A stretch of 64,000 nucleotides of DNA from an uncultured Gemmatimonadota bacterium. Its GTDB lineage: Bacteria; Gemmatimonadota; CAZMKB01. Position numbers and translations under genes: made by a program. The notes under the pieces were generated by a model. The model had not been told where the DNA came from and ran no database searches. It worked only from the letters and a program-made list of their open reading frames with translations. This document shows, one piece after another, positions 30,205 through 62,564 of the stretch (the first letter of the stretch is position 1; each line of letters starts with the position of its first letter). The stretch lies in NCBI GenBank assembly GCA_964654825.1, contig CAZZKG010000003.1, positions 26,531-90,530 on the forward strand, in the 5' to 3' direction.

Positions 30205-30223
30205 AAGCAGAGAGGACTGGAGT

Positions 30224-31363: not shown

Positions 31364-31366
31364 TTG

Positions 31367-44032: not shown

Positions 44033-44452
44033 ATGGAGAAACTCTCCCGGGCAATCCTCATCGAACCCGATGCCCTCTTCAGAGAAGCACTGAAGAAAGT
44101 TCTTGAGAGAGAAGGGTTTAAGGTTCTCGAGGCATGTTGTCTGGGTGAGGCCCTCCCCCTGATTCTCGGGTCGAACGTGTCCCTGATCACCACGGAGTTA
44201 AAACTCCCGGACTCGGAGGGACCGGAGACGATTGACCGGCTCCTCGACGTATCACCGGATTCTCAGGTGATCATCCTCACCGCCTTTCCCGAGCTGATAC
44301 CGAATGGCGGTTCTGATCGTTATTCCATTGAAAACGTTATATTTATGAGGAAACCGGTCGGTTTGAAGGATCTCCTCGAGAGAATCTCCTGTCCCCAAGC
44401 GGCGAAAACCCAGAAAATGAAAGACAAAATGTCAGGCGAAATCTCCTCATGA
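44033..44452 (+). CDS. receiver-like domain protein with non-canonical phosphorylation site (Asp->Glu)
   Basis: AILIEPDAL in place of DD. LITTELKLPDSEG in place of the LxxDxxMP phospho-acceptor Asp. Conserved T (IILTAF) and K (MRKPV). Confidence 0.5.
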   Translation: MEKLSRAILIEPDALFREALKKVLEREGFKVLEACCLGEALPLILGSNVSLITTELKLPDSEGPETIDRLLDVSPDSQVIILTAFPELIPNGGSDRYSIENVIFMRKPVGLKDLLERISCPQAAKTQKMKDKMSGEISS

Positions 44453-44628
44453 GAGTTGATTTTGCCTGAATGTCGCATCCGGAGGTTTTCTCACCTCACT
44501 TCTGTCAGACTGAAGTTGGAGTTGCTGAGGAATATCCTCCCGATCGAGAATCGCTTATGTAATAACTTGGGATATAAGTAGTTAGAGAATATACTCACAG
44601 CCTCGACAGTGTTGATTCCTGGCACGAT

Positions 44629-44644
44629 GGTTGCTTCTCTCTCA
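44629..44644 (+). promoter_or_regulatory. sigma-54 (-24/-12) promoter: TGGCACG-atgg-TTGCT
   Basis: Perfect consensus. GC at 44642-44643 lies 27 bp upstream of the ATG at 44671 of the first NHL gene. Confidence 0.65.
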
Positions 44645-46797: not shown

Positions 46798-47715
46798 ATG
46801 ATGAGATGTATTACAATGTTTTCGCTTCTCCTCCTCCTCGTGGTGAACACGGGTGCCGAATCTCAGATACTTCACTTCTCCCTCACCGAACGGTACGCGC
46901 TCTCCACCTTCCCCGGGGAGGGTGGCTTCGGGAGGATTTCCGACGTTTCCTACAGTCTCGATCTCGACGAGATTCTGGTGGCTGATGAGGTGAGGAGGAG
47001 AATTTTCACCTTCAAATCGGACGGCACTCCCGAGCAGGCTCTGGGAGTCGCCACCGATATCCCGCCGCCGTCTGCGACGGTTCCTGGTGGGGATGGGAAG
47101 GTCTATATCGTCGAGGCCCGGACGGGCAAGCTTTTTACGCTGAATCGTGTTGAAGGAGAACAAGTTGTTCCATTTCGAATAACCGGTGAAAAAATCATGG
47201 ATGAGGTCCGTGTGAGCGGTCTGGTGAGAAGCCGGGCGGGTGTTCTTTACCTTGTTACCGATGACGGGAAACAGATCATCATGTGTGATGGGGAGGGGCA
47301 TTACCGCGGGATGAGTGACCGGGGAGTGAGGCTCGGGAGGCTCATCGCGATCGATGTCGATGACCGTGGGAGGATCATCGCCGCGACCCGTGGATTGATC
47401 CCCCTCCGACTGTTCGATGGTTCGGGTTCTTTTTTGAGGAATATCGAGATCAGGGATCTCGCGACGGATATGTCGAGATCCGAGATCGGAGGTGTCGCAT
47501 TCGATGCCCAGGGGAGGGTGTGGCTCACATACCCCGTGGATGGTCTCGTCAGGGTGTTCGATGAAACCGGAACGCTTCTGGACGAGATCGGGAGCTCGGA
47601 GATACCCGGCGGACTTTTTTCCCCGGCTGATATCGAGATCACCCCGATGGGCGATTTACTTATCCTCGAACGGGGATCGAACCGGGTACGCTGTTTCTCG
47701 ATGGAATTACAGTGA
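46798..47715 (+). CDS. secreted NHL-repeat beta-propeller protein
   Basis: Signal peptide. Blades KVYIVEARTG, VLYLVTDDG, RIIAATRG, RVWLTYPVDG and DLLILERG. Confidence 0.7.
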   Translation: MMRCITMFSLLLLLVVNTGAESQILHFSLTERYALSTFPGEGGFGRISDVSYSLDLDEILVADEVRRRIFTFKSDGTPEQALGVATDIPPPSATVPGGDGKVYIVEARTGKLFTLNRVEGEQVVPFRITGEKIMDEVRVSGLVRSRAGVLYLVTDDGKQIIMCDGEGHYRGMSDRGVRLGRLIAIDVDDRGRIIAATRGLIPLRLFDGSGSFLRNIEIRDLATDMSRSEIGGVAFDAQGRVWLTYPVDGLVRVFDETGTLLDEIGSSEIPGGLFSPADIEITPMGDLLILERGSNRVRCFSMELQ

Positions 47716-48623
47716 AAAATAAATTCTTTCCTGTTGTGATGATACCACTGCTCCTGGTCTCCGTCTTTACAGATGTCGGAGAGGGAATCGCTGAGGTGCG
47801 CCTGCAACTGAAGCCCGCGGCAATGCTCACGGCACCGGGAGCCAGGCTTTCTTCGGTCGCTTACTCCGATGTCTGGGATGAGATCTACGCCGTGGATATG
47901 CTTACCGGGGATATCCTGGTGAGCAAAATGAAATCTCTAAGGTTCGATAAGCTGGAAGTGCGAGGGGAGCTCAAAGCATACGCTCTCACCGTCGGGGATG
48001 AGGATTTTCTGTTCGTCACTGACCTCCGCGGGTCCGGCGTGACCAAGATCACACCCGCTGGGGATATCGTTACGAGAATCGATGTGGGCACGGAAGAGGC
48101 TCCCGGTACCTGTCTCGGCAGGATAAGGACAGGCCCTGAGGGCAGGATCTATGCCGTCGAGCGTTCCGGGGACAGGATTTTTATTTTTGATAACAAGCTC
48201 GAGTCCATGGAGATTGTTCACCTGGGATCCCCGTCCGACACCCTTACGGTCGTGGATCTGACATTCGGTGAAGGCGGGACGATTCTGGCTCTTTCTTCGA
48301 AAGGCCAGGTACTCCGGAAGTTCGATGGTTCTGGAACGTATCTGGGAGGGTTCGGGATCCACAGTACGGACAAGAGCGCATTCTCGCTGCCGAGTGCGAT
48401 CACAAGGGGACCTGATGGTAATCTCTGGATAGTCGACTCCTTCCAGCACACTGTAAAATTGTACTCACAGACTGGTGATTTTCTCTACGCTCTGCTCGAT
48501 ATGGCCGCGTCCGGGAAAGGTCTCTACTTCCCGGTGGACATCGTATTCATCTCGAGGGACCGGGTTGCCTTACTGGACAAGGGATCATCGAGTATAAAGT
48601 TCTTCGAGGTGGAAAGCTCCTGA
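47712..48623 (+). CDS. secreted NHL-repeat beta-propeller protein
   Basis: Overlaps the upstream stop by 4 bp. Blades IYAVDMLTGD, FLFVTDLRG, RIYAVERSGD, NLWIVDSFQH and RVALLDKG. Confidence 0.7.
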   Translation: MKNKFFPVVMIPLLLVSVFTDVGEGIAEVRLQLKPAAMLTAPGARLSSVAYSDVWDEIYAVDMLTGDILVSKMKSLRFDKLEVRGELKAYALTVGDEDFLFVTDLRGSGVTKITPAGDIVTRIDVGTEEAPGTCLGRIRTGPEGRIYAVERSGDRIFIFDNKLESMEIVHLGSPSDTLTVVDLTFGEGGTILALSSKGQVLRKFDGSGTYLGGFGIHSTDKSAFSLPSAITRGPDGNLWIVDSFQHTVKLYSQTGDFLYALLDMAASGKGLYFPVDIVFISRDRVALLDKGSSSIKFFEVESS

Positions 48624-48633
48624 CGGTGATCGT

Positions 48634-50730
48634 ATGACAGGATGGTTCGAAAGAAAAAGCGTTTATTTCGGCCTGGTACTCGTTCTTTCGGCGGGGAACC
48701 TGACCGCCGATGAACATCATGACAGTAATGAGATTCCATGCTCCGACTGTCACACCATGCATTACGGTGACGTCACGTTCGACAGAGAACCGCTGCGCCC
48801 AGGAGGTCCTTTCGAGCACCTCCTGCTGGCGCCGGAGGACGAACTCTGCCTCAGTTGCCACGATGGTACAGATCCCTCCGCTCCGAACGTTGTCTCAGGA
48901 GAAGGGGCGGAGTTGTCCGGAGGGTGGTTCACGCTGGGATCCGGTTCTGATGAGAACGGACATACACTGGGAAGCCGCGAGCTTCCACCGGGGTCGACAC
49001 GCGACCGAGTCGATACGCGATTGCGATGCATCTCCTGCCACGATCCGCACGGGAATAAATATTACCGGAATCTACGCCCGGCTCCCGGGGGAGGGGAAGG
49101 ACCCGGCCTGACATCCGGGAGAGAAACAGCCGGATCGAGTAACACGAGCGTGCTGATGCTGGATGCCTCGGGTGCCTCTAGGTATGCCCCGGAGAGTGTA
49201 CGGTTTCATGGATCGTTACAGACGGGTCAGGGCGCGCACATTTCTGCATGGTGCGGGGGCTGTCACACCATGATGCACGGCGATGGAGGAGATCCGGAAA
49301 TGGGTGGTTCGTTGTACGGGCACCGGGAAGCGAAGACTGTCTGGCTGCAGCATCCGGTAAAAGGTATCCCGATGTCTCTCTCCGTCAAAAACGGACACGA
49401 TGAGAACAGGGGCTGGTTCGAAGATTACGCTTCGAGACTCTCGGTTGCTTCTTCGGGAGAAGTCCCGGGCACTCCGGCTGCGAGCGACAACGAGATTACA
49501 TGCCTCACCTGCCACGCCGCCCACGGCAGCGGTTTTCGTTTCTCCCTCATTTACGACGACGCCGAAACAGTGCTCGAAAGAGACGGTCGGCGATTGAGTC
49601 AGAGCTGCCGGCAGTGCCACCGGTTCGGTCACGAGCCGTTTGAACACACTCTTCACGGTGATCCTGAGAACGGCGTCCAGAGGACAGGTTCACCCGACGA
49701 GCGGGGTGAGTGCAGTCAATGTCACATTATGCATGGCGCGGTCGAGAGCGGTGTTACAGGCGGTGAGGCGTTCCCCTATCTCCTCTTTACCGAAAACGGC
49801 AACAATCTCTGCTACGGAGGAGGCGATGCCGGAGGATGTCACCGTGACAGGCCGTTCAATTATCCGGCGCGGGAAAGCGATCGAATGCCGGAGTATGCGG
49901 ATAATCCCGGTTACTTCGAGTTCAACAACGGCGCCGTTCGCATTCCCGGGGTCAACAAACGCAACCGCTGGCCCGGAGAGCAGGCCTACGAGAACCCTCT
50001 GACGTACAAAGGCGGGAAGTTGTTCTCCCCGCACGCATTCGATCAGGACATGCCGATAGTGGATGAATCCGGACAGGGGGCCTGCCGGAACTGCCACGAT
50101 CCTCACGAGGGTGATGGATCACATGATCTTCTGGTGATGGAATACGGTCCGGTGAGCGGTGCCGGTGAAATCAAAGCCCCGGCAGCGTACGATCTCTGCC
50201 TGGGCTGTCATTCGTTCGAGGGGCCGGTGGGTATGGACATCGAGAACAAATGGATCCGTGACTACTATGATTCATCGATCAACGAGGATCTGACCACCGG
50301 CCACCAGATACGCTTCAATCCCCGTGTAGCCCTGTCATGGCCGAGCAACGTGGAGCTGGGGGACAAGTTGCCATGTTATGACTGTCACAACCCCCACGGT
50401 TCCTGGGGAAATGATGGAACGAATCCGAACGGTTATCTGATCAGCGATGAGAGGCCGGATTGGAGCGGCCTGACCGACACTCTGGATGATCCAGGACAGT
50501 CACGGAGATTCTGCCTCGGCTGCCACATCTCCTCTGATGGCGAAGCGGGTTCACGGTCAGTGGAAGGCATTATCATGAATACGATTTCGAGTCGAAAAGG
50601 CCACTTGTCCTCATCCGGGGCGTCGTGTCATACCTGTCATGGTGGTGATTATTCGACCTCCAACTCATTCAATGTGCATCACCCGGCTGGAGGTGCGGTT
50701 GCCATCGAGAAGGAAAAACAGATCCGTTAG
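48634..50730 (+). CDS. multiheme c-type cytochrome (12 CxxCH)
   Basis: Signal peptide. Twelve CxxCH motifs. The N-terminal CSDCHTMHYG...LCLSCHDG module is shared with the 6-haem and 7-haem cytochromes. Confidence 0.85.
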   Translation: MTGWFERKSVYFGLVLVLSAGNLTADEHHDSNEIPCSDCHTMHYGDVTFDREPLRPGGPFEHLLLAPEDELCLSCHDGTDPSAPNVVSGEGAELSGGWFTLGSGSDENGHTLGSRELPPGSTRDRVDTRLRCISCHDPHGNKYYRNLRPAPGGGEGPGLTSGRETAGSSNTSVLMLDASGASRYAPESVRFHGSLQTGQGAHISAWCGGCHTMMHGDGGDPEMGGSLYGHREAKTVWLQHPVKGIPMSLSVKNGHDENRGWFEDYASRLSVASSGEVPGTPAASDNEITCLTCHAAHGSGFRFSLIYDDAETVLERDGRRLSQSCRQCHRFGHEPFEHTLHGDPENGVQRTGSPDERGECSQCHIMHGAVESGVTGGEAFPYLLFTENGNNLCYGGGDAGGCHRDRPFNYPARESDRMPEYADNPGYFEFNNGAVRIPGVNKRNRWPGEQAYENPLTYKGGKLFSPHAFDQDMPIVDESGQGACRNCHDPHEGDGSHDLLVMEYGPVSGAGEIKAPAAYDLCLGCHSFEGPVGMDIENKWIRDYYDSSINEDLTTGHQIRFNPRVALSWPSNVELGDKLPCYDCHNPHGSWGNDGTNPNGYLISDERPDWSGLTDTLDDPGQSRRFCLGCHISSDGEAGSRSVEGIIMNTISSRKGHLSSSGASCHTCHGGDYSTSNSFNVHHPAGGAVAIEKEKQIR

Positions 50731-52360
50731 TACCGGGATCTGCCTGCTCTTCGCTCTGATCGCGGGATCGGGAGTATTAGGAAGAGCGAGCGGGCAGGCG
50801 AGATTGGGAGGAAGATTGAACCTGTTTTATCAGGAATCGAGGCTGGGAGACCTGTACTCCAGGAATTCCAACCAGAATCTGGATCTAACGATCTACGATG
50901 ATCTCTTTGCGAAGAACATGATTTCCCTGTCATATCTCATGGAACGAAAAACAGGATCCTCCCAGCCGCAGGATTTCCTGAGGCACAGGATCAGATCGAC
51001 CATCACCGGCAGAGCCTTCGTCTTTACTTCCGAGTATTCACCCCCTCACACGCTGAGGGGGACAATCGGGGAAACTTCTCAGAAATCGGACAGGAAGAGA
51101 TTCCTTCTGGGAGTGAATCCCGAGGATTACCCGGTATTCTCACTCTCCTACGACCGATCCGACCGCCACGGCGGAGCCGGCAATTTCAGAGTGGATTCTG
51201 TGAACGAGAACTCACTCGCTGCGACCAGTTATGACTACCGATTTGCCGGCGCACGCGCGACGTTCAGGGAGAGGAAGACCACCAACCACCTGGACACGGG
51301 TCTCAACCGAAGATTGAGTGAAGGCACCGGCGGCGTGACACTGGAAAGCAGGCTTGGCCCAATCGGGAGTTTCATGGCCAGCTATGACGGTCTGCTCTCA
51401 AAGGAAAAATTTGGGGGGAGGGACAGGGCCCGCGTGAGAATCGACAATGTGCGGGGACTCTTCTCTTCGAATCCTGCCAGGTGGCTCACTCTCTCGGCCA
51501 ACTTCCTCGGGTCAATCATTGACAGGGAAAACGAGACCGCCAACAGGACTCTATCGCAGGAGCTCTATACCGCGGCAACGTATCAGCCGAGGGAATACCT
51601 TCAGTTCCAGTTTGCGAGAGACATCAGGGAAACAGAAGAAGACGGCACGACGACACTCTCGGATTATGCGAGGGCCCAGAGTACGATTCAGGGTTATCTG
51701 AGGGACGGCATCCGGGGCAGAGCGTCGATCCAGAGGACATTCGTCATCAAAAGTGAAGAGGGAGCATTTCCGTCGAACGGTTATTTTTTCAACCTGGACA
51801 CCGACTTGATGCCCGGAGCGATACTGGCATTCGATCTCAATGTGACGAAGAGCGAGAATCCCAATGCACAGATCGGCACCTACCAGGTCAGAAAAGTGGT
51901 TGATCTGAGAGGCTTCCCGAGATCCGACCTGTCGATCAATTTCGCGTACCGGACCCTCCAGTTCGGCAACTCTCTCGATCTGCTCGGTTCGAAGACGTAC
52001 GATGTCGAATTAGATCTGAACTACCGGCCGAAACCGAGATTTTCAACAATTCTCACCCTCACCCGGAGCGTCGACAGGCGTGTGCTCGGTGGAGCGGGGT
52101 TGTTTCTGAGCTCCACGACGACATATTCACTGGCCGGTGGAAGTCACCTGAGCTTCATTTACATCCGCCGCGATGTGAGCGGTGCTATTATCCAGACTCC
52201 CGGCGTCAGTGCGCAGGGTACCTATCCCAATAACTATCTCCTCGAACTGGTGATCCTGATGGCACGGCAGACGAGGCTCAGCGTGAAATATGATATCAGG
52301 GATCTCTCCCAGGGCAGCATCAGCACCGTGCTGGGAATAACTTTCATCAAGAGGTTTTAA
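50672..52360 (+). CDS. putative outer-membrane beta-barrel protein (candidate porin partner of the cytochromes)
   Basis: Positively charged n-region followed by a hydrophobic signal segment (TGICLLFALIAGSGVLG). Alternating-polarity strands throughout. C-terminal ...GITFIKRF ending in aromatic Phe. Start uncertain. Overlaps the upstream cytochrome 3' end. Confidence 0.45.
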   Translation: MCITRLEVRLPSRRKNRSVSTGICLLFALIAGSGVLGRASGQARLGGRLNLFYQESRLGDLYSRNSNQNLDLTIYDDLFAKNMISLSYLMERKTGSSQPQDFLRHRIRSTITGRAFVFTSEYSPPHTLRGTIGETSQKSDRKRFLLGVNPEDYPVFSLSYDRSDRHGGAGNFRVDSVNENSLAATSYDYRFAGARATFRERKTTNHLDTGLNRRLSEGTGGVTLESRLGPIGSFMASYDGLLSKEKFGGRDRARVRIDNVRGLFSSNPARWLTLSANFLGSIIDRENETANRTLSQELYTAATYQPREYLQFQFARDIRETEEDGTTTLSDYARAQSTIQGYLRDGIRGRASIQRTFVIKSEEGAFPSNGYFFNLDTDLMPGAILAFDLNVTKSENPNAQIGTYQVRKVVDLRGFPRSDLSINFAYRTLQFGNSLDLLGSKTYDVELDLNYRPKPRFSTILTLTRSVDRRVLGGAGLFLSSTTTYSLAGGSHLSFIYIRRDVSGAIIQTPGVSAQGTYPNNYLLELVILMARQTRLSVKYDIRDLSQGSISTVLGITFIKRF

Positions 52361-52959
52361 TGGAGAGAATATTTTCGAAAATCGATTTGAGAGGCCTGAA
52401 AGTTGCAGTTTTTCTTGTACTTATCCTGTCAGTACAGCAGTGTGGAGGTCCCCGGAGGTTCGTGCACCCCGAGGCCGATGTCTCGTACTACGAGCGGCTT
52501 GGCCTGCTGTCGTTCGAGAACCTCGCCACTGACCGGGTCGCAGGTGAAAAAGTCACCAACGCGTTCCTCACGGAACTGTTGATCTCGAAGCGGTTCGAGG
52601 TCGTGGAGCCAGGCAGGGTCAACAGGGCCTCGAGAGAGCTCGGGCTTCCTTCTCCACTCATAGGCGGCGAGCTCACGCCCGAGGAGGTCAAGGAACTGGG
52701 TGAGCAACTCGGGGTCGAGGCGCTTTTGAGGGGTGTGGTTCGTGAATATGAGATGGTACGCATCGGGCAGACACAGTACCCGCTGGTCACCCTCGACATC
52801 GAATTGCTGGACGTAGCGACCGGGACCACCGTCTGGGTTATCAGTCATACGAAAAAGGGAGGTCCCAACCTGCCCTTCGTCAGTGTTGGAGAAACGTTCA
52901 CCCTTGGAGAACTGTTGCAGGAAATATGTCACGATATCGTATCGAAAATCCCGAAATAA
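52360..52959 (+). CDS. lipoprotein, LpoB/TolB-N-like fold (putative)
   Basis: Signal peptide with Cys (LSVQQCGG). Pattern LLSFENLATD...FEVVEP...LG..LGVEALLRGVVREYE resembles the LpoB/CsgG/TolB-N fold family. Paralogous to the next gene. Confidence 0.4.
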   Translation: MERIFSKIDLRGLKVAVFLVLILSVQQCGGPRRFVHPEADVSYYERLGLLSFENLATDRVAGEKVTNAFLTELLISKRFEVVEPGRVNRASRELGLPSPLIGGELTPEEVKELGEQLGVEALLRGVVREYEMVRIGQTQYPLVTLDIELLDVATGTTVWVISHTKKGGPNLPFVSVGETFTLGELLQEICHDIVSKIPK

Positions 52960-53555
52960 GACGAATCAGGTACCCGATCCTGATCTTCGCGCTCCTCTTG
53001 TTGATCTGTTCCGGTTGCGGACCGACACCGCGGACTTACCTGAACGATGATATCAATACACTTCAGGGGTACCGTGTAGCGCTCTTGCCACTCGACAACC
53101 TTAGTGGAGTGGACGGTGCCACCGAGAAGATCGATGAGCTTCTTCTCGTCGAGCTGCTGAGGACCGGCTCTTTCCAGGTCATCGAACCCGGGGAAGTCGA
53201 AAGGGTGCTCCTGGAACTGAGGATCCGGAGGACCTCCGAGCTTTCTCTGGAAGATATGACTGCGGTCTCCCAGCGGTTGAATGCGGATGCTCTCCTTGTG
53301 GGGTCGGTGCTCGAATACGGTAGAAAAGAATCGAGATCAATCGGCGGTGGACAGGTCCCCAGTATCACCATTGTACTCAGACTGGTGGATGTCAAAAACG
53401 GACAGGTCCGGTGGGCGTCCTCACACTCGAGGACCGGTGATGATGCGGAAAAGGTGTTTGGGATCGGGAGGATCAGGGATCACAGCAGACTCAGTAGAGA
53501 GATCGTCAAAGAGATGCTCGAATCATTAGAGCTGACAGTATCGGCACAGAAATGA
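52926..53555 (+). CDS. lipoprotein, LpoB/TolB-N-like fold (paralog)
   Basis: Lipobox-like LLICSGCG. VALLPLDNLSG...FQVIEPGEV...ADALLVGSVLEYG parallels the previous protein. Confidence 0.4.
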   Translation: MSRYRIENPEIRRIRYPILIFALLLLICSGCGPTPRTYLNDDINTLQGYRVALLPLDNLSGVDGATEKIDELLLVELLRTGSFQVIEPGEVERVLLELRIRRTSELSLEDMTAVSQRLNADALLVGSVLEYGRKESRSIGGGQVPSITIVLRLVDVKNGQVRWASSHSRTGDDAEKVFGIGRIRDHSRLSREIVKEMLESLELTVSAQK

Positions 53556-54022
53556 GGGTTGTTACTATGTCCAGGTTCGTGATGATTGTTTTCCTTCTCT
53601 GTTTGACAACAATGACGGGGTATTCGGATGTGCTGAGTGAAGAGACACCCCCCGCTGACCCCGGGTCGATTACCCTTCTGGCGAAGCACCGGCTCTACCC
53701 CGATTTTTCCGAACAACACACCGTCGCCATGAACCAGAGATTCGCCATATCCGATGAGGGGTACGAAGCGGTCATCACCAGGTATCTCCCTGATTTCGCC
53801 ATCCAGATCACCGATGAGGGGAAGAAGATATTCTCCAAATCGACAGAGGCCAACAATCCGGCATTCTGGATCGTCGTGTACAAGGACAGTGCGGCGGTAG
53901 ACAGTGTGTGGGCGTTTTCTGTCAGGGGAGCGCCTCATTTTTCGAGGAATTCATTCATATATTTCGAGATCCTCGAGTTCGATTCAGGGGACACCTCTGG
54001 TGAAACGGAGGAGGGGCAATGA
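53552..54022 (+). CDS. small secreted hypothetical protein
   Basis: Signal peptide. No recognised domain. Its 4-bp overlaps with both neighbours suggest translational coupling. Confidence 0.4.
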   Translation: MRVVTMSRFVMIVFLLCLTTMTGYSDVLSEETPPADPGSITLLAKHRLYPDFSEQHTVAMNQRFAISDEGYEAVITRYLPDFAIQITDEGKKIFSKSTEANNPAFWIVVYKDSAAVDSVWAFSVRGAPHFSRNSFIYFEILEFDSGDTSGETEEGQ

Positions 54023-57000
54023 GGAGAACGGGTTTCATTTTTGCAGTCATATTCTTCTCTCTCGCAGTTCTGATTCTTGCAGGGTCTCTCGAGGGCCGTA
54101 AAAAATGTTATGACTGTCACAAAGAAAAGAAGAGTGAGTTTCTGTCGCATCCGAACGTCCACAAACCCGTGAAGAATGAGGACTGCGAAGATTGCCATCG
54201 AAGGCACGGTTTCGCCCAGACCCTTCTGCTCAAACGTGAGGGCAGGGCGTTGTGCACGGAGTGCCATCCGGGCATCGAAGATGAATTGAGCAAGAATGTG
54301 ATACACGATCCGCTCGAGACCGGCCAGTGCAATGCATGTCATGATCCCCATGCCTCTGACGCGGATGCTCTCGTCCGAAGTGAGGATATCGCCGGTCTCT
54401 GTTTTACGTGCCATACCGAACTCGGATCGCCACCCGAGGGTAGCCGGATCCACAAACCCTTCGAGGAAGGTCGGTGCATGGATTGTCATCAACCACATTC
54501 CTCCGATGCCGAAGGACTGCTGGTCCAGGATGAGCCACAGCTCTGCTACGGCTGTCACGAAGAGGAGAAGATACTTAAAAAACAAGGCCACTCTATTCTC
54601 GCGGCCGGGATCGCCACCTGTACCGATTGTCACTCTCCTCATTTCTCACCGGTTAAATCATTGATCGACACTCACGCCCACGAGCCGTTCCGTAATTCGG
54701 AATGCGATATATGTCATATCGAAGAGGGAGGAAAATTCTCTTCCGAACTCGTGGAGGAAGTCCCCGGCCTCTGTATGATGTGTCACGATACCATCTCGGA
54801 GAAGATCGGACTGGCCGTACCTCATGCTCCGGTCGCATCAGGTGAATGTCTCATGTGCCATAATCCGCACAGGAGTGACAGAGAGAAGCTGCTCACCGAC
54901 AACCAGAAGATGCTCTGTGCAGAATGTCATGAAGAGGCTGCCGGGAGAGGAGGCGCACAATCGGTACACGATCCTTTCGAGACGGGCAATTGTACCGGAT
55001 GCCACGATCCTCACGGCTCCGACAACCAGGCTCTTCTCGATACATCCGGCAGGGAACTCTGTTCCACGTGTCATGCCGACCTTGTGGAGAAGCTGGATTC
55101 GGCACCACACAGTCATCCGCCGGCATCGGATCCGGGTTGTGAACACTGTCACCAACCGCATGACTCGAAGATGAAGCACCTTCTCACCGATTATCCAAAA
55201 AACCTCTGTTTCGAGTGTCACGAAGATGCGAGAGCTCAGGGGAGATTTTCCCTTCAGCATGTGCCCTTCGACGGGGGTGATTGTGGGGCATGTCACGAGC
55301 CTCACGCCTCCGAACAGGACGTTATGCTCAGACGGTCTCCCGAGGAATTATGCATCACGTGCCACGCCGACATAGCGGCAAGGGTGAATGCGACTCATCC
55401 ACATCCTCCTGTGATGGAAGGGGCCTGCCTGAGCTGTCATGTCCCTCATGCCGCTCAGGGTGATGAGCTTCTCGTCTCGGGCCAGAGTGAGATATGCGGC
55501 ACCTGTCATGACATGGGGCTGGAAGGAATAAGCCACGTTCATGGGGCGCTCGAGGAAGGGAAGTGCAGCGGCTGTCATGATCCTCACGGCGGTGAAACAG
55601 AGCATTTCCTGAAAGCCGAGGGGAAAGAGCTGTGTTACAGCTGTCACTCCGAATTCCGGAAAAAGGAAGAGGACCCAATCGTACATCAACCGGTGAAAGA
55701 CGGGGAGTGTAATAAATGTCATCTTCCTCACGGTTCTACGGTGAAATGGAATCTTGTTGATGAGGTCTCAGCCCTGTGCGGCAACTGCCATGATTTGAGC
55801 GACGAAGGAGCCGGGATGGCACACAGGGATCTGGATATGGAATCCTCCACCTGTACATCCTGTCATGATCCCCACAGTTCCGAGAAGGAGGGGCTTATTG
55901 CAAGGAATGTTCACGAACCATTCGAATCCGGTGTGTGTGAAGCCTGCCACGAATTCGACCCTGCTACGGGTCAGGCCGCGCTCACCGATGATCAGGTCGA
56001 GATCTGCACTGACTGTCACGAAGACATCCTCACCGGCACTCATATCCACAACGCAATCGAAGATGTCGGTTGTACGGCTTGCCACAGCCCACACGCTTCA
56101 TCGAGGGATTTCCTCCTGATCGACAACAGAAATTCCATATGCATAGAGTGCCATCCCGATCACTCGGCAGATCAGGAGTTCACATCGAGTCATCCCATGA
56201 TCACCCGCGGTGAGTGTGAGACATGTCACGTACCTCATTCCGCAGACAATAACAAATTACTCGTGTCGAATCAGCCGGGTCTCTGTTTCGAATGCCACGC
56301 GAGTGTCGAAGCTGATAAGAACTACAACATGCATGCCCCGTTCGCCGGAGGTATGTGCACGGATTGTCACAGTCCGCACACCTCTCAATCAGTGAAACTT
56401 CTGACTAATGACGTTCCCGGTCTCTGCCTGTCATGTCATGGAGGAGATATCCCTGGCCTCAGGAGAAAACACGGCGGTCACCATGTCGATGGGGGCAACT
56501 GCGCAGTGTGTCATGATGCTCACTGGACTCCGCCCGGTTCACAGTCGCTACTCTATCCGGTGGTTCATGAACCTCTCAATTCCGGATGTGACGTGTGTCA
56601 TCCGAGGGGTATCCTCGCCGGGACGGAGAAGCCGGAAGACCTGTGCCTCGGCTGCCATGACAGAATCGTAGAAGATACCGACAGATACGTGCATCAGGCT
56701 TTGCAGAAGAGAGGGGGGTGCACGAACTGCCATAATCCACACCGGGGGTACGGGAAGGAATTACTGAAAAAGGAAGGTGATGATATCTGCTTCACCTGCC
56801 ACGATGAAAAAAGTAAAACCGGAAGAAGAGTTGTACATGAACCAGTTCCTGACGGATGTCTCAATTGTCATTCAGCACACAGTGCGGGTGAAGAGTTCCT
56901 GCTCCCGTCGCCTGTGAACGAGCTCTGTGGTACCTGCCACGAGGCGGAGCTCCAGATGCACAGCCATCCGTCGGGAGGGAGTGCGAAGGATCCGAGGACC

Positions 57001-57126
57001 GGGGAAGCGCTCACCTGTGCGAGCTGTCATGACGCTCACTCGAGTGATGTGCAGACCCTGCTCCGTGCTGATCCGAAAAAGGAGCTGTGTCTGGGATGTC
57101 ACTACCTGGATAAAAATTTTCAGTAA
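54019..57126 (+). CDS. giant multiheme c-type cytochrome (~42 CxxCH in 1035 aa; c7/c3-like tandem di-haem repeats)
   Basis: Signal anchor. I count 42 CxxCH motifs. Most sit in repeating units of the form C..CH.PH.S......L....LC..CH, about one haem per 25 aa. Confidence 0.9.
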   Translation: MRRTGFIFAVIFFSLAVLILAGSLEGRKKCYDCHKEKKSEFLSHPNVHKPVKNEDCEDCHRRHGFAQTLLLKREGRALCTECHPGIEDELSKNVIHDPLETGQCNACHDPHASDADALVRSEDIAGLCFTCHTELGSPPEGSRIHKPFEEGRCMDCHQPHSSDAEGLLVQDEPQLCYGCHEEEKILKKQGHSILAAGIATCTDCHSPHFSPVKSLIDTHAHEPFRNSECDICHIEEGGKFSSELVEEVPGLCMMCHDTISEKIGLAVPHAPVASGECLMCHNPHRSDREKLLTDNQKMLCAECHEEAAGRGGAQSVHDPFETGNCTGCHDPHGSDNQALLDTSGRELCSTCHADLVEKLDSAPHSHPPASDPGCEHCHQPHDSKMKHLLTDYPKNLCFECHEDARAQGRFSLQHVPFDGGDCGACHEPHASEQDVMLRRSPEELCITCHADIAARVNATHPHPPVMEGACLSCHVPHAAQGDELLVSGQSEICGTCHDMGLEGISHVHGALEEGKCSGCHDPHGGETEHFLKAEGKELCYSCHSEFRKKEEDPIVHQPVKDGECNKCHLPHGSTVKWNLVDEVSALCGNCHDLSDEGAGMAHRDLDMESSTCTSCHDPHSSEKEGLIARNVHEPFESGVCEACHEFDPATGQAALTDDQVEICTDCHEDILTGTHIHNAIEDVGCTACHSPHASSRDFLLIDNRNSICIECHPDHSADQEFTSSHPMITRGECETCHVPHSADNNKLLVSNQPGLCFECHASVEADKNYNMHAPFAGGMCTDCHSPHTSQSVKLLTNDVPGLCLSCHGGDIPGLRRKHGGHHVDGGNCAVCHDAHWTPPGSQSLLYPVVHEPLNSGCDVCHPRGILAGTEKPEDLCLGCHDRIVEDTDRYVHQALQKRGGCTNCHNPHRGYGKELLKKEGDDICFTCHDEKSKTGRRVVHEPVPDGCLNCHSAHSAGEEFLLPSPVNELCGTCHEAELQMHSHPSGGSAKDPRTGEALTCASCHDAHSSDVQTLLRADPKKELCLGCHYLDKNFQ

Positions 57127-57184
57127 ACCGTTCTATCAGAGGAAAGAGTTTAACGAAACAGGGGGAGTAAGGAGAGAAGTCTGG

Positions 57185-58360
57185 ATGAACATCAAGAAAA
57201 CTAGTATTTTCGCGGGTGTCACTGTCCTGCTGCTCGTGATCTCGCTGCCGGTGATGCTCCTGGCGCAGAGAAGCCGGGATTCGTTCAGGGGGGCGAAGAT
57301 TCACATCGGAGGGGTCAATCCCGACCTCCGGGCTCCCAATCTGCTGCCGCCCGGTGAGGGGCCGTATCACAACGGTGAGACCCTCGTCTGCACCGATTGC
57401 CACGTCATGCACGCCAGCATGCAGCATAATTACGCCGGCGGCACCGGGCCAGAGGGTGGAGTCGACGGGTTTCCATGGGAACCTGATCCCGCACCCACAC
57501 TGCTCAAAGCGCCTGATCCGCTCGATCTCTGTCTGGTGTGTCACGACGGAGTGACGGGGATTCCCGATGTCGTCGGGGAGGATGTCAATGGCCTTGTTCA
57601 GCGTGCCGGTGGATTTTTCGATGAACCCGAAGTCGAAACACCGAACGGACATGACCTCGGCAGAGATCTGCCGGATGGCTGGGAGTTCTGTATGCGATGC
57701 CACTGGGGTGATCCCGAGGACCAGAAAGTGACCTGTATCGACTGTCACAACCCTCACGGAAACGGGAACCCGCGCAACCTCCAGTGGGCGTCTGATCCCG
57801 ATGCGACACCTCCGGTCGGCCTGTTTGTCGATCCTGCAGCGGGTGATATGGACAGGTATGAAAGGTCGAGGGTGTCATACGGTACACTCAACTCGGAATC
57901 ACTGAGGGAAGTCACAAACATCTGCCTGGACTGTCACCACATATTTTCGGGAGGTACATACATCGATCCCGACGGTGATGGGATCCATTCCAGACACCCG
58001 ACATACGACAGTGAGCGAAGTTCGCCCAACAATATCCAGCAGGGTGAGGCCCGGGGCTCGACCAATCCTGATCACTGGGAAGACGGATCTGGATCCGGTT
58101 TCGACGGTACAGAGAGAGTGAAGTTCGTAGTCAGCGGGGCATCCGACTATGATGCTGCCCTCGTTGTCGACGCGTCGACGAACGGTGTGTTCTGTCTGTC
58201 GTGCCATTACGTGCACGGTTCGACCGAACCGTTCGCGCTCACCTGGCCGATCGAGGATGTGGTGAACTATGTCGGTTGTGACCAGTGTCACTACCTCGCT
58301 CAGGTTGATGAGATTCCGTTGAGCGGAGTTGTCAACAGGAGAGGATTTCAGACTCGATAA
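57185..58360 (+). CDS. multiheme c-type cytochrome (7 CxxCH)
   Basis: GGAGAG RBS. Signal peptide (MNIKKTSIFAGVTVLLLVISLPVMLLA). Seven CxxCH motifs. N-terminal CTDCHVMHAS...LCLVCHDG module shared with the 6- and 12-haem proteins. Confidence 0.85.
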   Translation: MNIKKTSIFAGVTVLLLVISLPVMLLAQRSRDSFRGAKIHIGGVNPDLRAPNLLPPGEGPYHNGETLVCTDCHVMHASMQHNYAGGTGPEGGVDGFPWEPDPAPTLLKAPDPLDLCLVCHDGVTGIPDVVGEDVNGLVQRAGGFFDEPEVETPNGHDLGRDLPDGWEFCMRCHWGDPEDQKVTCIDCHNPHGNGNPRNLQWASDPDATPPVGLFVDPAAGDMDRYERSRVSYGTLNSESLREVTNICLDCHHIFSGGTYIDPDGDGIHSRHPTYDSERSSPNNIQQGEARGSTNPDHWEDGSGSGFDGTERVKFVVSGASDYDAALVVDASTNGVFCLSCHYVHGSTEPFALTWPIEDVVNYVGCDQCHYLAQVDEIPLSGVVNRRGFQTR

Positions 58361-58531
58361 CTCGAGAAAAATCTGCCGGAAATCCGCATCCATCTGCCGA
58401 AGAAGGATGATATTGCGGAGAGTTGGGAAGGAGGATATATTTAGGGCGATTTTGGCTTAAGTGTAATTCATGGGTAGGGAGGCGTGCTTCACTCTCTCTC
58501 TAAACACGCACTCTTCACCGTGGGAGGTAGT

Positions 58532-59077
58532 ATGAAGAAGAGTCTACTTGTTTTCCTGGCAGCGGGATTTGTCGCTGCTATGTTTCTCTCTCAAAGTGTC
58601 GCCAGCGCAGCCCAGTACGTCGGTACGAAAAAATGCAGGATGTGTCACATGTCCAAATCCAAGGGTGCTCAGTTTTCCGTCTGGGAGGGAAGCCGGCATG
58701 CCGGTGCATATCAGACCCTGACCTCGGATAAAGCGAAAGAAATCTACGCGAAAGCGGTTCCCGATGGTACCGGGAATCCGGCGGAATCGGATGAGTGTCT
58801 CGCATGTCACTCGACGGGATTCGGGAAGGCCGCGGAGCTCTTCGCGGGCACATTCGACAAGACCGAAGGGGTTGGTTGCGAAGCATGTCATGGACCCGGG
58901 AGTGATTATCAGAAGATGATCGTCATGAAAGACAAGGAGAAAGCGGTCGCGGCGGGGTTGAATATTCCGACCGAAGAAACCTGCAAGGGATGTCACAACG
59001 AAAAGAGCCCGACTTACAAGGAATTCGCGTTCGACACGTATTTTGCAAAGATCGCGCACCCGATTCCTGCGAAATAA
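58532..59077 (+). CDS. tetrahaem c-type cytochrome (periplasmic, c554/c3-like)
   Basis: GGGAGG RBS. Signal peptide. CRMCH, CLACH, CEACH and CKGCH motifs. Confidence 0.8.
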   Translation: MKKSLLVFLAAGFVAAMFLSQSVASAAQYVGTKKCRMCHMSKSKGAQFSVWEGSRHAGAYQTLTSDKAKEIYAKAVPDGTGNPAESDECLACHSTGFGKAAELFAGTFDKTEGVGCEACHGPGSDYQKMIVMKDKEKAVAAGLNIPTEETCKGCHNEKSPTYKEFAFDTYFAKIAHPIPAK

Positions 59078-59142: not shown

Positions 59143-59177
59143 GTTGTGCGCCCGGCAGTGCGTGCTTGCCGGGAGTT

Positions 59178-59858
59178 TTACTCGTCTGTCTCCGAGGCTT
59201 CTTCTCCGGCGGCCGTGTCCACCAGTATTTCGATCTTCCCGGGGGCATGGCACCCTTTCAGGGCGCTGATCATCCCGACGATCGCGTTGGTGAGGATGTC
59301 CTTCACGAATCCCTTGAGGCCGATTTTTTTTCCGTCAACTCGGACTTCTATGTCCATTTTCGTTCCTCCCTTTCTCTTGAGGAGCTTTCTATCGATAAAA
59401 GTCACGAGACCTTCGATATCGTCGGGTTCAAAGTCAGGGGTGTTTTCCGCGGGTGATCCTCTACCCACAGTCGCGATGAGCCCCCTCCGGTTGAAATCCG
59501 GCTCGTCTTCCTCTCCCGAGAGGTAGATCTTTTTGAGCGGTGAATGTTTAAATCCCTCGAGCAGGACCAGGTCCAGATCGTTCATGCACAGCTCGGCGAG
59601 GTACTGCGGTTTAAGGTTGAGATCGGTTGAGAAATGGGGCAGCGCGGCGCCTTCCGGCCCGACGAGCATGACACGGGAAGCCCCCGATTCGCGGAACCGC
59701 CACGTGTCCGTCCCGGAAGTGTCGAGATCGATCTTGTGGTGTGAGCTCTTGATCACTCCGACCCTCACACCCCGGGCGATGAAAACTTCGACGAGGCGGG
59801 TTATGAGGCGTGTCTTTCCACTTTTTTTCGTGCCGACGATGGCCAGCATCTTGACCAT
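59178..59858 (-). CDS. mobB: molybdopterin-guanine dinucleotide biosynthesis protein MobB-like P-loop protein with C-terminal extension
   Basis: MLAIVGTKKSGKTRLITRL Walker A. MobB-like GVIKSSHHKIDLDTSGTDTWRF. About 90 extra C-terminal residues. Confidence 0.7.
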   Translation of the reverse strand: MVKMLAIVGTKKSGKTRLITRLVEVFIARGVRVGVIKSSHHKIDLDTSGTDTWRFRESGASRVMLVGPEGAALPHFSTDLNLKPQYLAELCMNDLDLVLLEGFKHSPLKKIYLSGEEDEPDFNRRGLIATVGRGSPAENTPDFEPDDIEGLVTFIDRKLLKRKGGTKMDIEVRVDGKKIGLKGFVKDILTNAIVGMISALKGCHAPGKIEILVDTAAGEEASETDE

Positions 59859-60040
59859 AGGATATCCTCCCGTGATATAAATATACGTTCGTTTCTCTCA
59901 ATTTCAACAGGATTGGGATAATGGGCAAGGAGTGTAGTAAGTACAACTCTAAGATAAAGAGAAACACCTCCACTGCTGTTGAACGTCTTGACACTCATCC
60001 GGCGGCGGGCTAGTTTAATCTCAGCAGGAGTCCGGTATAC

Positions 60041-61198
60041 ATGGATAATGGAACAAACAGGGAACCCGATGTTCGAAAATTAACATCGGTCACCGTCATC
60101 GTATTTCTCATCGTTATCATCACCGTCCTCCACTACACAACACCTACAGCCCTGCCGATAAGGCACGATATCTACTACCGTCTATACTACATTCCTATCA
60201 TCCTCGCTGCATTCACCTTCGGGCTCGCCGGGGGTGTCATCTCAGGAGTAGTGATCAGCATCGTCATTTTTCCTCATATCCTTATCGACTGGGGCGGCCT
60301 GATGCTCCGGAACCTCAATATGATCATCGAGGTTGTTCTGTACAACATCGTGGGTCTTCTGACCGGCTTCCTCGTCTCATCGGAACGAAAGAGGCGCATC
60401 GAGCTGGAACTCGCCCAGAGCCGGTTACAGGAATCCTTCAAGGAACTCGAGGAGAGAGGAGAAAGGCTTCTGCAGGTCGAGGAAAGTCTGCGTGCTCATG
60501 AGAAACTGGCACTCCTGGGGGAGATGGCGGCGATAATGGCACATGAAGTGAGAAATCCTCTTGGCTCAATTCAGGGTGCGGCCGAACTCCTCACTCACCG
60601 GTCCCGGGATGATGAAGAGGCGAAAAAGTACTCCTCAATCCTCATCGATGAAGTCAGGAGACTCAACGGTGTCGTCACCGGCTTCATCGACTCGGCGAGA
60701 AAGAATGAGAGTATTCGAGAGAGGGTTGACGTCAGCGGAGTCCTCCGTGATGTCGTCTATCTATATTCCCGGTCTGCGCTGAAGAAAGGCGTCAGAGTGA
60801 AGGAGTGGTACCAGGATGGGCTCCCAGCTGTTCTCGCGAACGAGGACATGCTGAGACAGGTGTTCATCAACATTCTTCTGAATGCCGTGGAGGCGGTGAC
60901 CGGAAGTGGTGAGGTCTCTGTCAGTGCGAGTTCGAGCCTCACAGGAGTCCGGGTCGTGTTTCACGACACCGGCAAGGGGATTCCAGCGGATATACAGGAG
61001 AAGATCTTTGATCTTTTCTACACCACGAGGGAGGGGGGGACGGGGTTCGGTCTGGCTATTTCCAGAAGGATCGTCGAAGAACACGGCGGGCGTATAGAGA
61101 TCCGGAGTACTCCGGGCGAAGGGACCGAAGTGATCATAGAACTCCCCGCATGGAATGGAGACAAGTGCAGTGAAGACGCAAGTGATACTCATCGATGA
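60041..61198 (+). CDS. membrane sensor histidine kinase
   Basis: About 4 N-terminal TM helices. H-box MAHEVRNPLGSIQG. HATPase_c (DTGKGIPAD...GTGFGLAISRRIVEEHGG). Confidence 0.8.
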   Translation: MDNGTNREPDVRKLTSVTVIVFLIVIITVLHYTTPTALPIRHDIYYRLYYIPIILAAFTFGLAGGVISGVVISIVIFPHILIDWGGLMLRNLNMIIEVVLYNIVGLLTGFLVSSERKRRIELELAQSRLQESFKELEERGERLLQVEESLRAHEKLALLGEMAAIMAHEVRNPLGSIQGAAELLTHRSRDDEEAKKYSSILIDEVRRLNGVVTGFIDSARKNESIRERVDVSGVLRDVVYLYSRSALKKGVRVKEWYQDGLPAVLANEDMLRQVFINILLNAVEAVTGSGEVSVSASSSLTGVRVVFHDTGKGIPADIQEKIFDLFYTTREGGTGFGLAISRRIVEEHGGRIEIRSTPGEGTEVIIELPAWNGDKCSEDASDTHR

Positions 61199-62564
61199 TG
61201 ACAGGAACCTGAACGAGATACTGTCCGCTCATCTGAGAGACGGCGACTATGAGGTGTACTCCTTCACCAATCCGATTGAGGGAATGAAGCAGTTGAGAAC
61301 GGACGGGTACTCTCTTGTCATAAGTGACATGAAAATGGAACCGGTGGATGGCCTTACGGTTCTCGCCGAAGCGAAAAGAATCAATCCCGATGTACCGGTG
61401 ATCATGATCACCGGGCACGCCACGGTAAAGAACGCCGTGCAATCCATGAAACTCGGGGCTTACGACTACATCACCAAGCCGTTTTCGCGGGAGGAATTCC
61501 TCCACATCGTGGGAAACGCCGTCGATCACTTCAACCTCAGAGAGGAGAACCGGCGTCTCAGGCGGGACCTTTCGGGCCGCTATGATTTTTCTTCGATTGT
61601 CGGGAGAAGCGCTGCCCTCACGAAGGTCTTCAGTCTGATGGAGAAAGCGCTCGACAATAACGTCACCGTTCTCATCACCGGCGAGAGCGGCACAGGCAAG
61701 GAGCTCGTCGCGAGAGCGATCCATTACAACGGCATCAGAAAGCACATGCCGTTCATCGTCGTTAACTGTGCCTCCATCCCCGACACTCTGATCGAGTCCG
61801 AACTCTTCGGCCACGTGAGGGGCGCCTTCACAGGAGCACTTAAGGACAGAAAGGGAAAGTTCCAGACAGCCGACGGGGGGACCATATTCCTCGACGAGAT
61901 CGGGGATCTCAAGCTCGATCTCCAGGCAAAGCTTCTGAGGGTCCTGCAGGAAGGCGAATTTGAGCGGCTCGGTGAGGGAAAGCCGGTGCAGGTGGATGTT
62001 CGGGTGATCGCCGCGACGAACAGGCATATCGAGGAGATGGAAAAAACGGGGACTTTCCGTGAAGATCTGTACTACCGGGTATCTGTGTTCCCGATACAGC
62101 TCCCCCCGCTCAGAGAGAGAAGAGACGACATCCCCCTCCTAACGGACTTTTTTTTGAAGAAGTATTCCAGCGGGGACACCGCTCCCCGGATCGACAGGGA
62201 AACCGAGGAAGTACTCTCCCGTTATGACTGGCCGGGAAATGTCAGAGAACTCGAAAATGTGATCGAACGTTCACTCATCCTTTCCAGGGGAGAGGCGATC
62301 GGTGTCGCTCACCTCCCGGAGAAGCTCACGGAATCGAAGCTCTGGTGTGCGAACCTGTTCGAAATACCGGAGGGAGGGGTCGAGCTCGAAGAACTCGAAA
62401 AAAGCCTCATCCTCCAGGCTCTCCACAAGACTGGCGGGAACAGATCCCGAGCCGCTCGTCTCCTCGGCCTCTCACGGCCGACTCTCCTCTACCGCCTGGA
62501 AAAATACGACCTGGTGGGGGAGGAGAAGATGAAGAAAGGGCCGTCGGGAGACCCGGCAGTCTGA
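61155..62564 (+). CDS. sigma-54-dependent response regulator (NtrC family), second copy
   Basis: Receiver (VILIDDD, SLVISDMKMEPVDG). Walker A GESGTGKELVA. GAFTGA. C-terminal HTH. Confidence 0.9.
   Translation: METSAVKTQVILIDDDRNLNEILSAHLRDGDYEVYSFTNPIEGMKQLRTDGYSLVISDMKMEPVDGLTVLAEAKRINPDVPVIMITGHATVKNAVQSMKLGAYDYITKPFSREEFLHIVGNAVDHFNLREENRRLRRDLSGRYDFSSIVGRSAALTKVFSLMEKALDNNVTVLITGESGTGKELVARAIHYNGIRKHMPFIVVNCASIPDTLIESELFGHVRGAFTGALKDRKGKFQTADGGTIFLDEIGDLKLDLQAKLLRVLQEGEFERLGEGKPVQVDVRVIAATNRHIEEMEKTGTFREDLYYRVSVFPIQLPPLRERRDDIPLLTDFFLKKYSSGDTAPRIDRETEEVLSRYDWPGNVRELENVIERSLILSRGEAIGVAHLPEKLTESKLWCANLFEIPEGGVELEELEKSLILQALHKTGGNRSRAARLLGLSRPTLLYRLEKYDLVGEEKMKKGPSGDPAV

Follow-up and report, generated by a model that had tools for sequence, protein, structure and literature searches.

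A 64,000-nucleotide stretch of DNA from an uncultured Gemmatimonadota bacterium (assembly GCA_964654825.1, contig CAZZKG010000003.1, positions 26,531 to 90,530; the whole stretch is referred to below as the window) contains a single open reading frame (ORF), designated J here, for a c-type cytochrome with 42 CxxCH haem-binding motifs. J sits in a 12-gene operon, 14.5 kb long (~44.6–59.2 kb), the genes of which are lettered A to L and are flanked on both sides by regulatory genes. The features are as follows, with lengths in amino acids (aa).

39845–42505, + strand: PAS histidine kinase, probable upstream regulator
42502–43893, + strand: NtrC-type sigma-54 activator, probable upstream regulator
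44620–44634, + strand: perfect sigma-54 -24/-12 box, TGGCACGATGGTTGC, 37 nt upstream of A
44671–45618, + strand: A, NHL-repeat beta-propeller protein, first gene of the operon (domain scans)
45687–46721, + strand: B, hexahaem OmcS-family cytochrome, 344 aa (family profile)
46798–47715, + strand: C, NHL-repeat beta-propeller protein with signal peptide (domain scans)
47712–48623, + strand: D, NHL-repeat beta-propeller protein with signal peptide (domain scans)
48634–50730, + strand: E, 12-haem cytochrome with an OmcS-family N-terminal half (residues 14–332) and six more haems in the C-terminal half
50639–52360, + strand: F, probable outer-membrane beta-barrel, 573 aa (~540 aa mature), no Pfam match
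52360–52959, + strand: G, LpoB/CsgG-like lipoprotein 1
52926–53555, + strand: H, LpoB/CsgG-like lipoprotein 2, lipobox ...LICSGC
53552–54022, + strand: I, secreted protein, 156 aa, no Pfam match
54019–57126, + strand: J, 42-haem c-type cytochrome, 1035 aa, ATG start, no internal stop
57185–58360, + strand: K, 7-haem OmcS-family cytochrome, 391 aa; the real start, 57185, lies inside a longer ORF (56927–58360)
58484–59077, + strand: L, c554-like secreted tetrahaem cytochrome, last gene of the operon
59151–59183, + strand: terminator-like hairpin 74 nt after L, with an 8-bp stem (6 GC pairs) and, after it, a T-rich tail
60041–61198, + strand: histidine kinase, downstream
61155–62564, + strand: second sigma-54 activator, downstream

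An intact 42-haem gene and its family

A regular-expression count on the translated ORF gave exactly 42 CxxCH motifs, in agreement with the initial annotation, which had described a 1035-aa ORF with this number. All 84 cysteines of J lie inside these motifs, the variants CxxxCH, CxxxxCH and CxxCK do not occur in it, and the total number of histidines is 96. Successive motifs are 19–30 residues apart, mainly 23 and 25 in alternation, which gives a two-haem unit of ~48 aa; the mature protein carries one haem per 24.0 aa, close to the density of about one motif per 25 residues estimated earlier. The predicted mass is 110 kDa for the apoprotein and ~136 kDa for the holoprotein. The N-terminus is a Sec signal peptide, with likely cleavage at ...LAGS/LEG, an ordinary signal peptidase I site without a lipobox, so placed that haem 1 lies ~5 residues from the mature N-terminus, while haem 42 lies 7 residues from the C-terminus. 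A strong Shine-Dalgarno sequence, GGAGGAGGGG, precedes the ATG, and the 4-bp overlap with a small upstream secreted protein that had been proposed is also present, as an ATGA shared with I (53552–54022), a 156-aa ORF with a hydrophobic, signal-like N-terminus.

Repetitive genes mis-assemble easily and several related loci carry truncated or interrupted copies, as would be expected if J were a product of faulty assembly, or a repeat gene in decay whose ORF is not expressed as one protein. We give almost no credence to this explanation. No tandem repeat was found in J at the nucleotide level; the repeats must therefore be ancient and visible only in the protein, there is nothing in the DNA to mislead an assembler, and mis-assembly is unlikely. 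Full-length J is co-linear with 53 independent homologues of identical motif number, a ribosome-binding site and translational coupling are in place, and the truncated copies lie mostly at contig ends. A single polypeptide, rather than several cytochrome genes split by frameshifts, is thus what the locus encodes: the ORF is unbroken, and a complete gene with exactly 42 motifs is found at 57 of 76 related loci, most of the remainder being cut by contig ends. Simple arithmetic (Cys ~1%, His ~2%) predicts fewer than 0.01 CxxCH motifs per 1035 aa, and together with the invariance of 42/42 motifs, co-linear in 54 aligned members at 33–38% identity, this excludes a chance origin of the motifs.

In a protein search space of ~5.8 billion proteins, relatives of J formed ~59 clusters of 1028–1090 aa (34–38% identity, 97–100% coverage), nearly all with exactly 42 CxxCH; an exact look-up of the J sequence itself gave no match. 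Beyond the histidines of the motifs, the 54-member alignment contains 40 invariant and two nearly invariant histidines, equivalent to one distal ligand per haem, and no methionine other than the initiator is invariant or nearly so. From these 42 conserved distal histidines it follows that haems throughout J should have bis-His ligation, and probably all of them do.

A survey of one genome per species recovered the family in 74 metagenome-assembled genomes (MAGs), among them Zixibacteria (18), Ignavibacteria (12), Eisenbacteria (6), Nitrospirota/Thermodesulfovibrionia (6), Deltaproteobacteria-type lineages including Geobacteraceae and Anaeromyxobacter (5) and Krumholzibacteriota (4), with further members in Latescibacterota, Gemmatimonadota and Acidoferrum MAGs; the loci span at least 10 phylum-level lineages. 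The closest relative of J is encoded in a Candidatus Glassbacteria MAG (61% identity) with full synteny. Such constancy at 42 haems across very distant phyla suggests a constraint on length.

Other motif numbers and architectures were also encountered. One family member has 45 CxxCH in 1134 aa (L022:9938-13342) and another, complete, has 41 (L069:10001-13150). Also in the wider superfamily are a protein of 1629 aa whose 52 CxxCH motifs form four blocks with linkers of ~80 aa between them, and cytochromes with 22–26 haems that are joined in one chain with peptidyl-prolyl isomerase domains (variant architectures seen in proteins P0056, P0100 and P0119).

Modular structure and cytochrome type

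The linkers between haem sites of J were classed by the position of their histidine. An 'h' linker has ~25 aa, with the histidine 7–10 residues before the next cysteine, and a 'P' linker has 23 aa, with xPH directly after CxxCH; the repeat unit C..CH.PH.S...L...C..CH given in the initial annotation corresponds to the latter. Most linkers alternate strictly between the two, and the breaks in this alternation are conserved irregular junctions at haems 9, 26 and 35, which divide the protein into successive blocks of 8, 1, 16, 1, 8, 1 and 7 haems. This spacing vector is kept across the family.

Shorter relatives of J fall into discrete classes with 26, 29 or 35 haems, and haems 1–26 of J follow exactly the linker grammar of the 26-haem class. 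In two 26-haem loci (L077 and L078) the next gene encodes a cytochrome with 16 CxxCH motifs and the grammar of J haems 27–42. These 16-haem proteins match a hidden Markov model (HMM) of J residues 645–1035 end to end and best (338 and 300 bits), score lower against the first 16 haems of J (269 and 262 bits), and share with J 645–1035 the C-terminal motif HPxGxxxxDPxxGxxxxCxxCHDxH; the 26-haem proteins, in turn, match the junction of J at haem 26 with their C-terminus. The linker grammar and the profile scores together indicate that J is, as judged from its sequence, a head-to-tail fusion of a 26-haem cytochrome (residues ~26–644) and a 16-haem cytochrome (residues ~645–1035), in the same order as the separate genes. 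No Geobacter entry was found among the cluster members of ten 26-haem proteins.

The best Pfam model on J was Paired_CXXCH_1 (PF09699), with 689 bits over 20 stretches (cut-off 20.6), and TIGR01905 scored 659 bits (cut-off 25.2); J has the repeated ~41-residue domain with two CxxCH motifs by which the Paired_CXXCH_1 family is defined. The initial annotation had instead taken J for a polymer of c7/c3-type di- and tri-haem domains, comparable to the dodecahaem cytochrome GSU1996 of Geobacter. The models Cytochrome_C7 (141 bits), Cytochrom_c3_2 (139 bits) and Cytochrom_CIII (65 bits) do pass their Pfam thresholds on J, but they cover the same stretches as Paired_CXXCH_1 with far lower scores. The period of J is two haems, and its block series is not one of three-haem domains, which contradicts a c7 polymer. 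Domains of the solved GSU1996 structure each contain one His-Met haem, whereas the J family has 42 conserved distal histidines and no conserved methionine, and no similarity of J to solved c7 or GSU1996 structures was detected by either sequence or fold. The initial interpretation was supported in part; its c7/c3-type assignment did not hold up, and we consider a polymer of this kind very unlikely.

The only significant solved relative of J, by sequence and by fold, is MtrA (PDB 6R2Q). Foldseek found MtrA with a model of J at a low TM-score, as is to be expected of a long flexible rod, and the DmsE/MtrA decahaem model of NCBIfam (TIGR03508) scored 454 bits on J, summed over 10 partial stretches. 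J has an MtrA-like fold and a bis-His haem chain. A plain DmsE/MtrA decahaem cytochrome, which would have ten haems in ~300–350 aa, is ruled out by the 42 haems in 1035 aa.

Partner genes and regulation of the operon

Synteny from A to J is kept in nearly every locus with enough flanking sequence. Two arrangements were observed, in which the A–H module lies either upstream of I–J, as here, or downstream (Zixibacteria, Ignavibacteria), and I is always directly upstream of J.

Protein I gave no match to Pfam even at E <= 1, none to NCBIfam, and none when its profile was compared with the Protein Data Bank (PDB). An iterated HMM of the I family matched residues ~311–422 of a bona fide ResB protein (PF05140, 265 bits) with E 5.9e-31. 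This ResB is encoded in a locus that lacks a free-standing I (L022:5071-6585, 3.4 kb upstream of the big cytochrome), and the reverse search, from ResB to the I family, also succeeded. A HMMER scan of 1.84 billion representative proteins with I of the window alone returned 134 relatives, mostly free-standing proteins of 145–240 aa; six of the 134 were full-length ResB proteins matched in their periplasmic domain. Residues P80, N102, A104, W120 and H129 of I are invariant. The matches of the profiles in both directions, together with the HMMER scan, show that I is secreted and homologous to a part of the periplasmic domain of ResB/CcsB, corresponding only to residues ~280–420 of bona fide ResB proteins. 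A full-length ResB/CcsB, with an N-terminal transmembrane segment, a periplasmic domain and C-terminal transmembrane helices, was ruled out, as I has 156 aa and only a signal peptide. ResB/CcsB belongs to System II of cytochrome c biogenesis, and I is translationally coupled to J. We infer that I may help with haem attachment or hold the nascent J chain. Cytochrome maturation may thereby have gained a new accessory factor, one of use in making giant multihaem proteins in other hosts.

Three of the cytochromes, B, E and K, share an OmcS-type module, which in E makes up the N-terminal half. Single sequences of B and E gave no match in the PDB, where OmcS was found only by the B family profile: a profile of 24 B orthologues, compared with all PDB sequences, had OmcS (6ef8_A) as its only significant match, E 1.8e-7. 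The alignment of B with OmcS is co-linear from mature residue 1 (FHSGGVAECEGCHTMH versus DYHTGATLxCSDCHVMHY) through the C-terminal haem site, the mature N-terminus of B, GDYHHGSTLNCSECHVMHY, aligning with OmcS residues 1–18. Residue H41 of B, invariant in its family, aligns with OmcS His16, which we take to be the ligand of a haem in the next subunit. Ligation of haems between subunits by an OmcS-type histidine has been stated in general terms (PMC12307469). On these alignments B, E and K are candidate extracellular nanowire subunits.

Orthologues of F occur in more than 60 loci. The start codon of F itself is uncertain, as the ORF overlaps E by 92 nt, and its C-terminus is ...ITFIKRF; the C-terminal residue in the family is F, I or Y, like that of substrates of the beta-barrel assembly machinery. 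The family has 12 amphipathic segments of period 2, versus 2.6±1.5 in column shuffles, and no hydrophobic helix past the signal peptide. In an AlphaFold2 (AF2) model of F with a pLDDT of 38 overall, residues 127–317 formed ten long antiparallel strands. Taken together with the profile match to a porin given below, F is a probable outer-membrane beta-barrel. A further search with a 24-sequence alignment of F added one fragment only, P0125, a 303-aa sequence on a 5.4-kb metagenome contig in ENA; it is 98% identical to F of the window, so that an organism very closely related to the source has been sampled elsewhere.

The lipoprotein genes G and H are paralogous and always accompany the barrel gene, 26-haem loci included. 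The family motif is (I/V)A(V/I)LPFxNxS, and lipoboxes were found in 39 of 58 members of the G family and 37 of 49 of the H family. Both are similar to outer-membrane lipoproteins that form rings, for example PelC or CsgG.

The 64-kb window contains just two perfect sigma-54 boxes (TGGCAC-N5-TTGC), and both are situated in the gap before the operon. One is that upstream of A. Pairs of a PAS kinase and an NtrC-type activator stand on either side of the operon, the upstream pair being its probable regulators. The second box (43917–43931, + strand) precedes a 139-aa receiver-like ORF (44033–44452). Two ORFs after the operon (59146–59526 and 59533–59880, + strand) are probably not genes, having no family match and Ser/Pro/Arg-rich low-complexity translations. 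A sulfotransferase gene and three genes for GT4-type glycosyltransferases lie ~10 kb upstream of the operon (27910–32977, - strand); glycosyltransferase blocks have been reported beside Geobacter OmcE nanowire clusters (bioRxiv 10.1101/2025.10.22.684050).

Role of the 42-haem cytochrome and comparison with known systems

The reading that we favour, and hold to be reasonably probable, is that J is a periplasmic MtrA-like haem wire that feeds an outer-membrane, OmcS-type conduit; the periplasmic location, the docking to the barrel, the spanning of the periplasm and the direction of electron flow are the parts of it that we infer. The haem count, the ligand histidines, the fusion, the MtrA-like fold and the make-up and conservation of the operon come directly from the analysis. 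J would be exported by Sec and its 42 haems attached with the help of I, and the resulting rod of ~30–34 nm (simple scaling from MtrA, with 10 haems in 80 Å, gives ~34 nm for 42 haems) would occupy the periplasm. It would be docked at one end in or at the probable barrel F, and its opposite end, tipped by a haem, would come close to an inner-membrane quinol/quinone oxidoreductase whose gene lies elsewhere. Electrons, passing from one haem to the next, would travel between the inner membrane and the external OmcS-like cytochromes, in either direction and without soluble carriers. A rod in the periplasm is favoured by the presence of haems near both mature termini and by the signal peptidase I site, without a lipobox. 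The invariant haem number of the family fits a constraint of distance.

Several observations weigh against this reading. A straight rod of ~34 nm somewhat exceeds commonly quoted periplasmic widths, and the conserved irregular junctions at haems 9, 26 and 35 could be bends. An inner-membrane redox partner was not found in the operon or in the rest of the 64-kb window. Lipoboxes do occur in some of the 26-haem relatives and in a few members with 42 haems, and in Geobacter and Shewanella a lipobox often marks surface-exposed cytochromes. The sole PDB match of the F profile is the porin MtrB, and it is marginal (E 0.008); the AF2 model of F failed overall, as only six sequences were in the alignment from which it was built. 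The placement of the 16-haem protein on J by BLAST is ambiguous because of the internal repeats of J, and the assignment made above is based instead on the linker grammar, the shared C-terminal motif and the scores of the profiles.

Both the scaled length and the lipoboxes would suit a J exported across the outer membrane, via F or by another route, to serve as a pre-polymerised extracellular or surface-anchored wire, with the OmcS-like proteins accessory or parallel to it. Giant extracellular cytochromes of 10–85 haems have been proposed in PCC3 clusters (PMC5566968), and UetJ, a paired-CXXCH undecahaem cytochrome from a cluster with NHL and barrel proteins, is predicted to be extracellular (bioRxiv 10.1101/2022.05.06.490989). 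However a lipobox is missing from J of the window and from most of its family, which have ordinary signal peptidase I sites, and the sole solved relative, MtrA, is a periplasm-facing component sheathed by a barrel. The separate 26- and 16-haem proteins were judged periplasmic by Skennerton et al. (PMC5539420), and oscI (GSU2495) and oscJ (GSU2494) are listed as periplasmic cytochromes in PMC13194489 and PMC10599522. The low-density OmcS-type cytochromes of the same operon already fill the outside role, and the haem number of J is invariant, unlike that of extracellular PCC3 cytochromes, which varies from 10 to 35 (PMC10734462), or of other large multihaem cytochromes, which also varies widely (PMC7399161). 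We therefore regard an extracellular J as unlikely. The idea that abundant multihaem cytochromes store charge has been put forward, both for Geobacter and for multihaem cytochromes of large size (PMC7399161, PMC10734462), and as no inner-membrane partner is encoded nearby, J might be a soluble periplasmic capacitor, a reservoir for up to 42 electrons with no fixed docking geometry. A capacitor would need neither a fixed haem number nor conserved junctions and termini, nor haems at both tips, and the strict synteny with a probable barrel and two lipoproteins speaks for a defined complex, so that we find this explanation quite improbable.

Returning to J as a periplasmic wire, a more encompassing reading can be offered, which we consider less likely than not. 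The invariant 42-haem chain would be a cable of fixed length, running from the inner membrane to an outer-membrane barrel that bears OmcS-type nanowires, with no soluble carrier; the split 26- and 16-haem cytochromes of Geobacter and of the partners of anaerobic methanotrophic archaea (ANME) would together, end to end, act as that cable, and I would be a dedicated holder or chaperone, not recognised before, for the threading of 42 successive sites by the haem-attachment machinery.

Multihaem cytochromes with up to 85 haems and the idea of a wire spanning the periplasm have already been published (PMC10734462, PMC5566968, PMC7399161). In our literature search no paper mentioning a 42-haem cytochrome was found. 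Four features appear to be new: the 42-haem fusion itself, the strictness with which it is conserved in many phyla outside the Desulfobacterota, its association with OmcS-family genes in those phyla, and its ResB-domain partner. The path that electrons take through the periplasm into cytochrome nanowires is still counted among the open problems, and a 2025 review called the anchoring, entry points and secretion of OmcS filaments speculative (PMC12307469). The family also places OmcS-type machinery for extracellular electron transfer in uncultured phyla of sediment and soil (Zixibacteria, Ignavibacteria, Krumholzibacteriota, Eisenbacteria, Latescibacterota, Glassbacteria), a spread which bears on the cycling of iron, of manganese and of electrons between species.

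Among known systems, MtrA is a 10-haem, 80-Å, all-bis-His wire inside the 26-strand barrel MtrB, its C-terminus facing outward and its N-terminus in the periplasm (PMC7198977). J shares with it the bis-His ligation, the two-haem linker grammar and the scarcity of secondary structure, and as MtrA is encoded with an outer-membrane barrel, so J is with the probable barrel F, the profile of whose family weakly matches MtrB. The differences are that J, with 42 haems, is about four times longer, that F (~540 aa) is shorter than MtrB (~695 aa), and that the J operon has OmcS-type cytochromes in place of the MtrC/OmcA-type surface decahaem of MtrCAB. GSU1996 and GSU0592 of Geobacter are, like J, elongated, repeat-built periplasmic multihaem 'nanowire' proteins, but they have 12 haems in three-haem domains.

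The PCC3 clusters of Fe(II) oxidisers (He et al. 2017, PMC5566968; Hoover et al. 2023, PMC10734462) embody the same concept, a very haem-dense (~25 aa per haem) repeat-built cytochrome beside a porin that is proposed to bridge the periplasm. The PCC3 periplasmic cytochrome has 21–27 haems, compared to 42 in J, and the hosts are mostly Proteobacteria. PCC3 clusters also encode a conserved inner-membrane protein with five transmembrane helices and HX13H motifs, and a giant Thr/Ser/Ala/Gly-rich extracellular cytochrome, neither of which is present at the J operon. A scan of all operon products, and of the region between 39.8 and 62.6 kb, found no ~300-aa five-helix protein with two HX13H motifs, and membership of the cluster in PCC3 was rejected on this ground. 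The Uet cluster of Candidatus Tenderia (bioRxiv 10.1101/2022.05.06.490989) is akin to the J operon in its NHL propellers, large barrel, paired-CXXCH rod-like cytochrome and maturation genes (CcsA/CcsB). It differs in that UetJ has 11 haems, that c7-type trihaem proteins, a cupredoxin and a peptidyl-prolyl isomerase are present, and that OmcS-type proteins are not. The composition of the J operon matches that of the OmcS/OmcE regions of Desulfuromonadia, which encode multihaem cytochromes, beta-propeller lipoproteins, a nanowire subunit and a large barrel, and for which a porin-mounted filament has been proposed (bioRxiv 10.1101/2025.10.22.684050).

The operon with separate 26-haem and 16-haem cytochrome genes was described by Skennerton et al. 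(2017, PMC5539420) in SEEP-SRB1, Desulfuromonadales and Anaeromyxobacter. It was later treated as an OetABI-type conduit (Murali et al. 2023, PMC10553843) and, according to PMC13194489, which cites Shen et al. (2025), is part of the omcS-companion 'osc' operon of G. sulfurreducens. Both forms have a 26-haem module followed by a 16-haem module, fused into one chain in J, and both include OmcS-family cytochromes and beta-propeller proteins, which are six-bladed in the split form and represented by three NHL-repeat proteins in the J operon. Our likening of the osc operon, in which an OmcS-family nanowire subunit is likewise encoded, to the J operon is drawn from the gene roles given in PMC13194489. 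The 26-haem loci L077 and L078 can be compared directly: they encode a barrel and LpoB-like lipoproteins homologous to F, G and H, the F HMM matching a 697-aa outer-membrane protein of L077 (E 2.7e-24) and G and H matching two lipoproteins in each locus (E 1e-8 to 1e-25). B also has homologues in the 26-haem loci, whereas I does not. In the split operon a peptidyl-prolyl isomerase gene precedes the 26-haem gene, and its place is taken in the J operon by the ResB-domain protein I; domain scans found no rotamase domain among the operon products of the window, while a rotamase gene is part of the operon in both L077 and L078 and, in L077, immediately precedes the 26-haem gene. The hosts differ as well, the split form being found mainly in Desulfobacterota and the fused form in Glassbacteria, Zixibacteria, Ignavibacteria, Krumholzibacteriota, Eisenbacteria, Latescibacterota, Gemmatimonadota and Nitrospirota. 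From the fusion comes a simple hint that, in the known operon, the 26-haem and 16-haem proteins work one after the other as a single wire.

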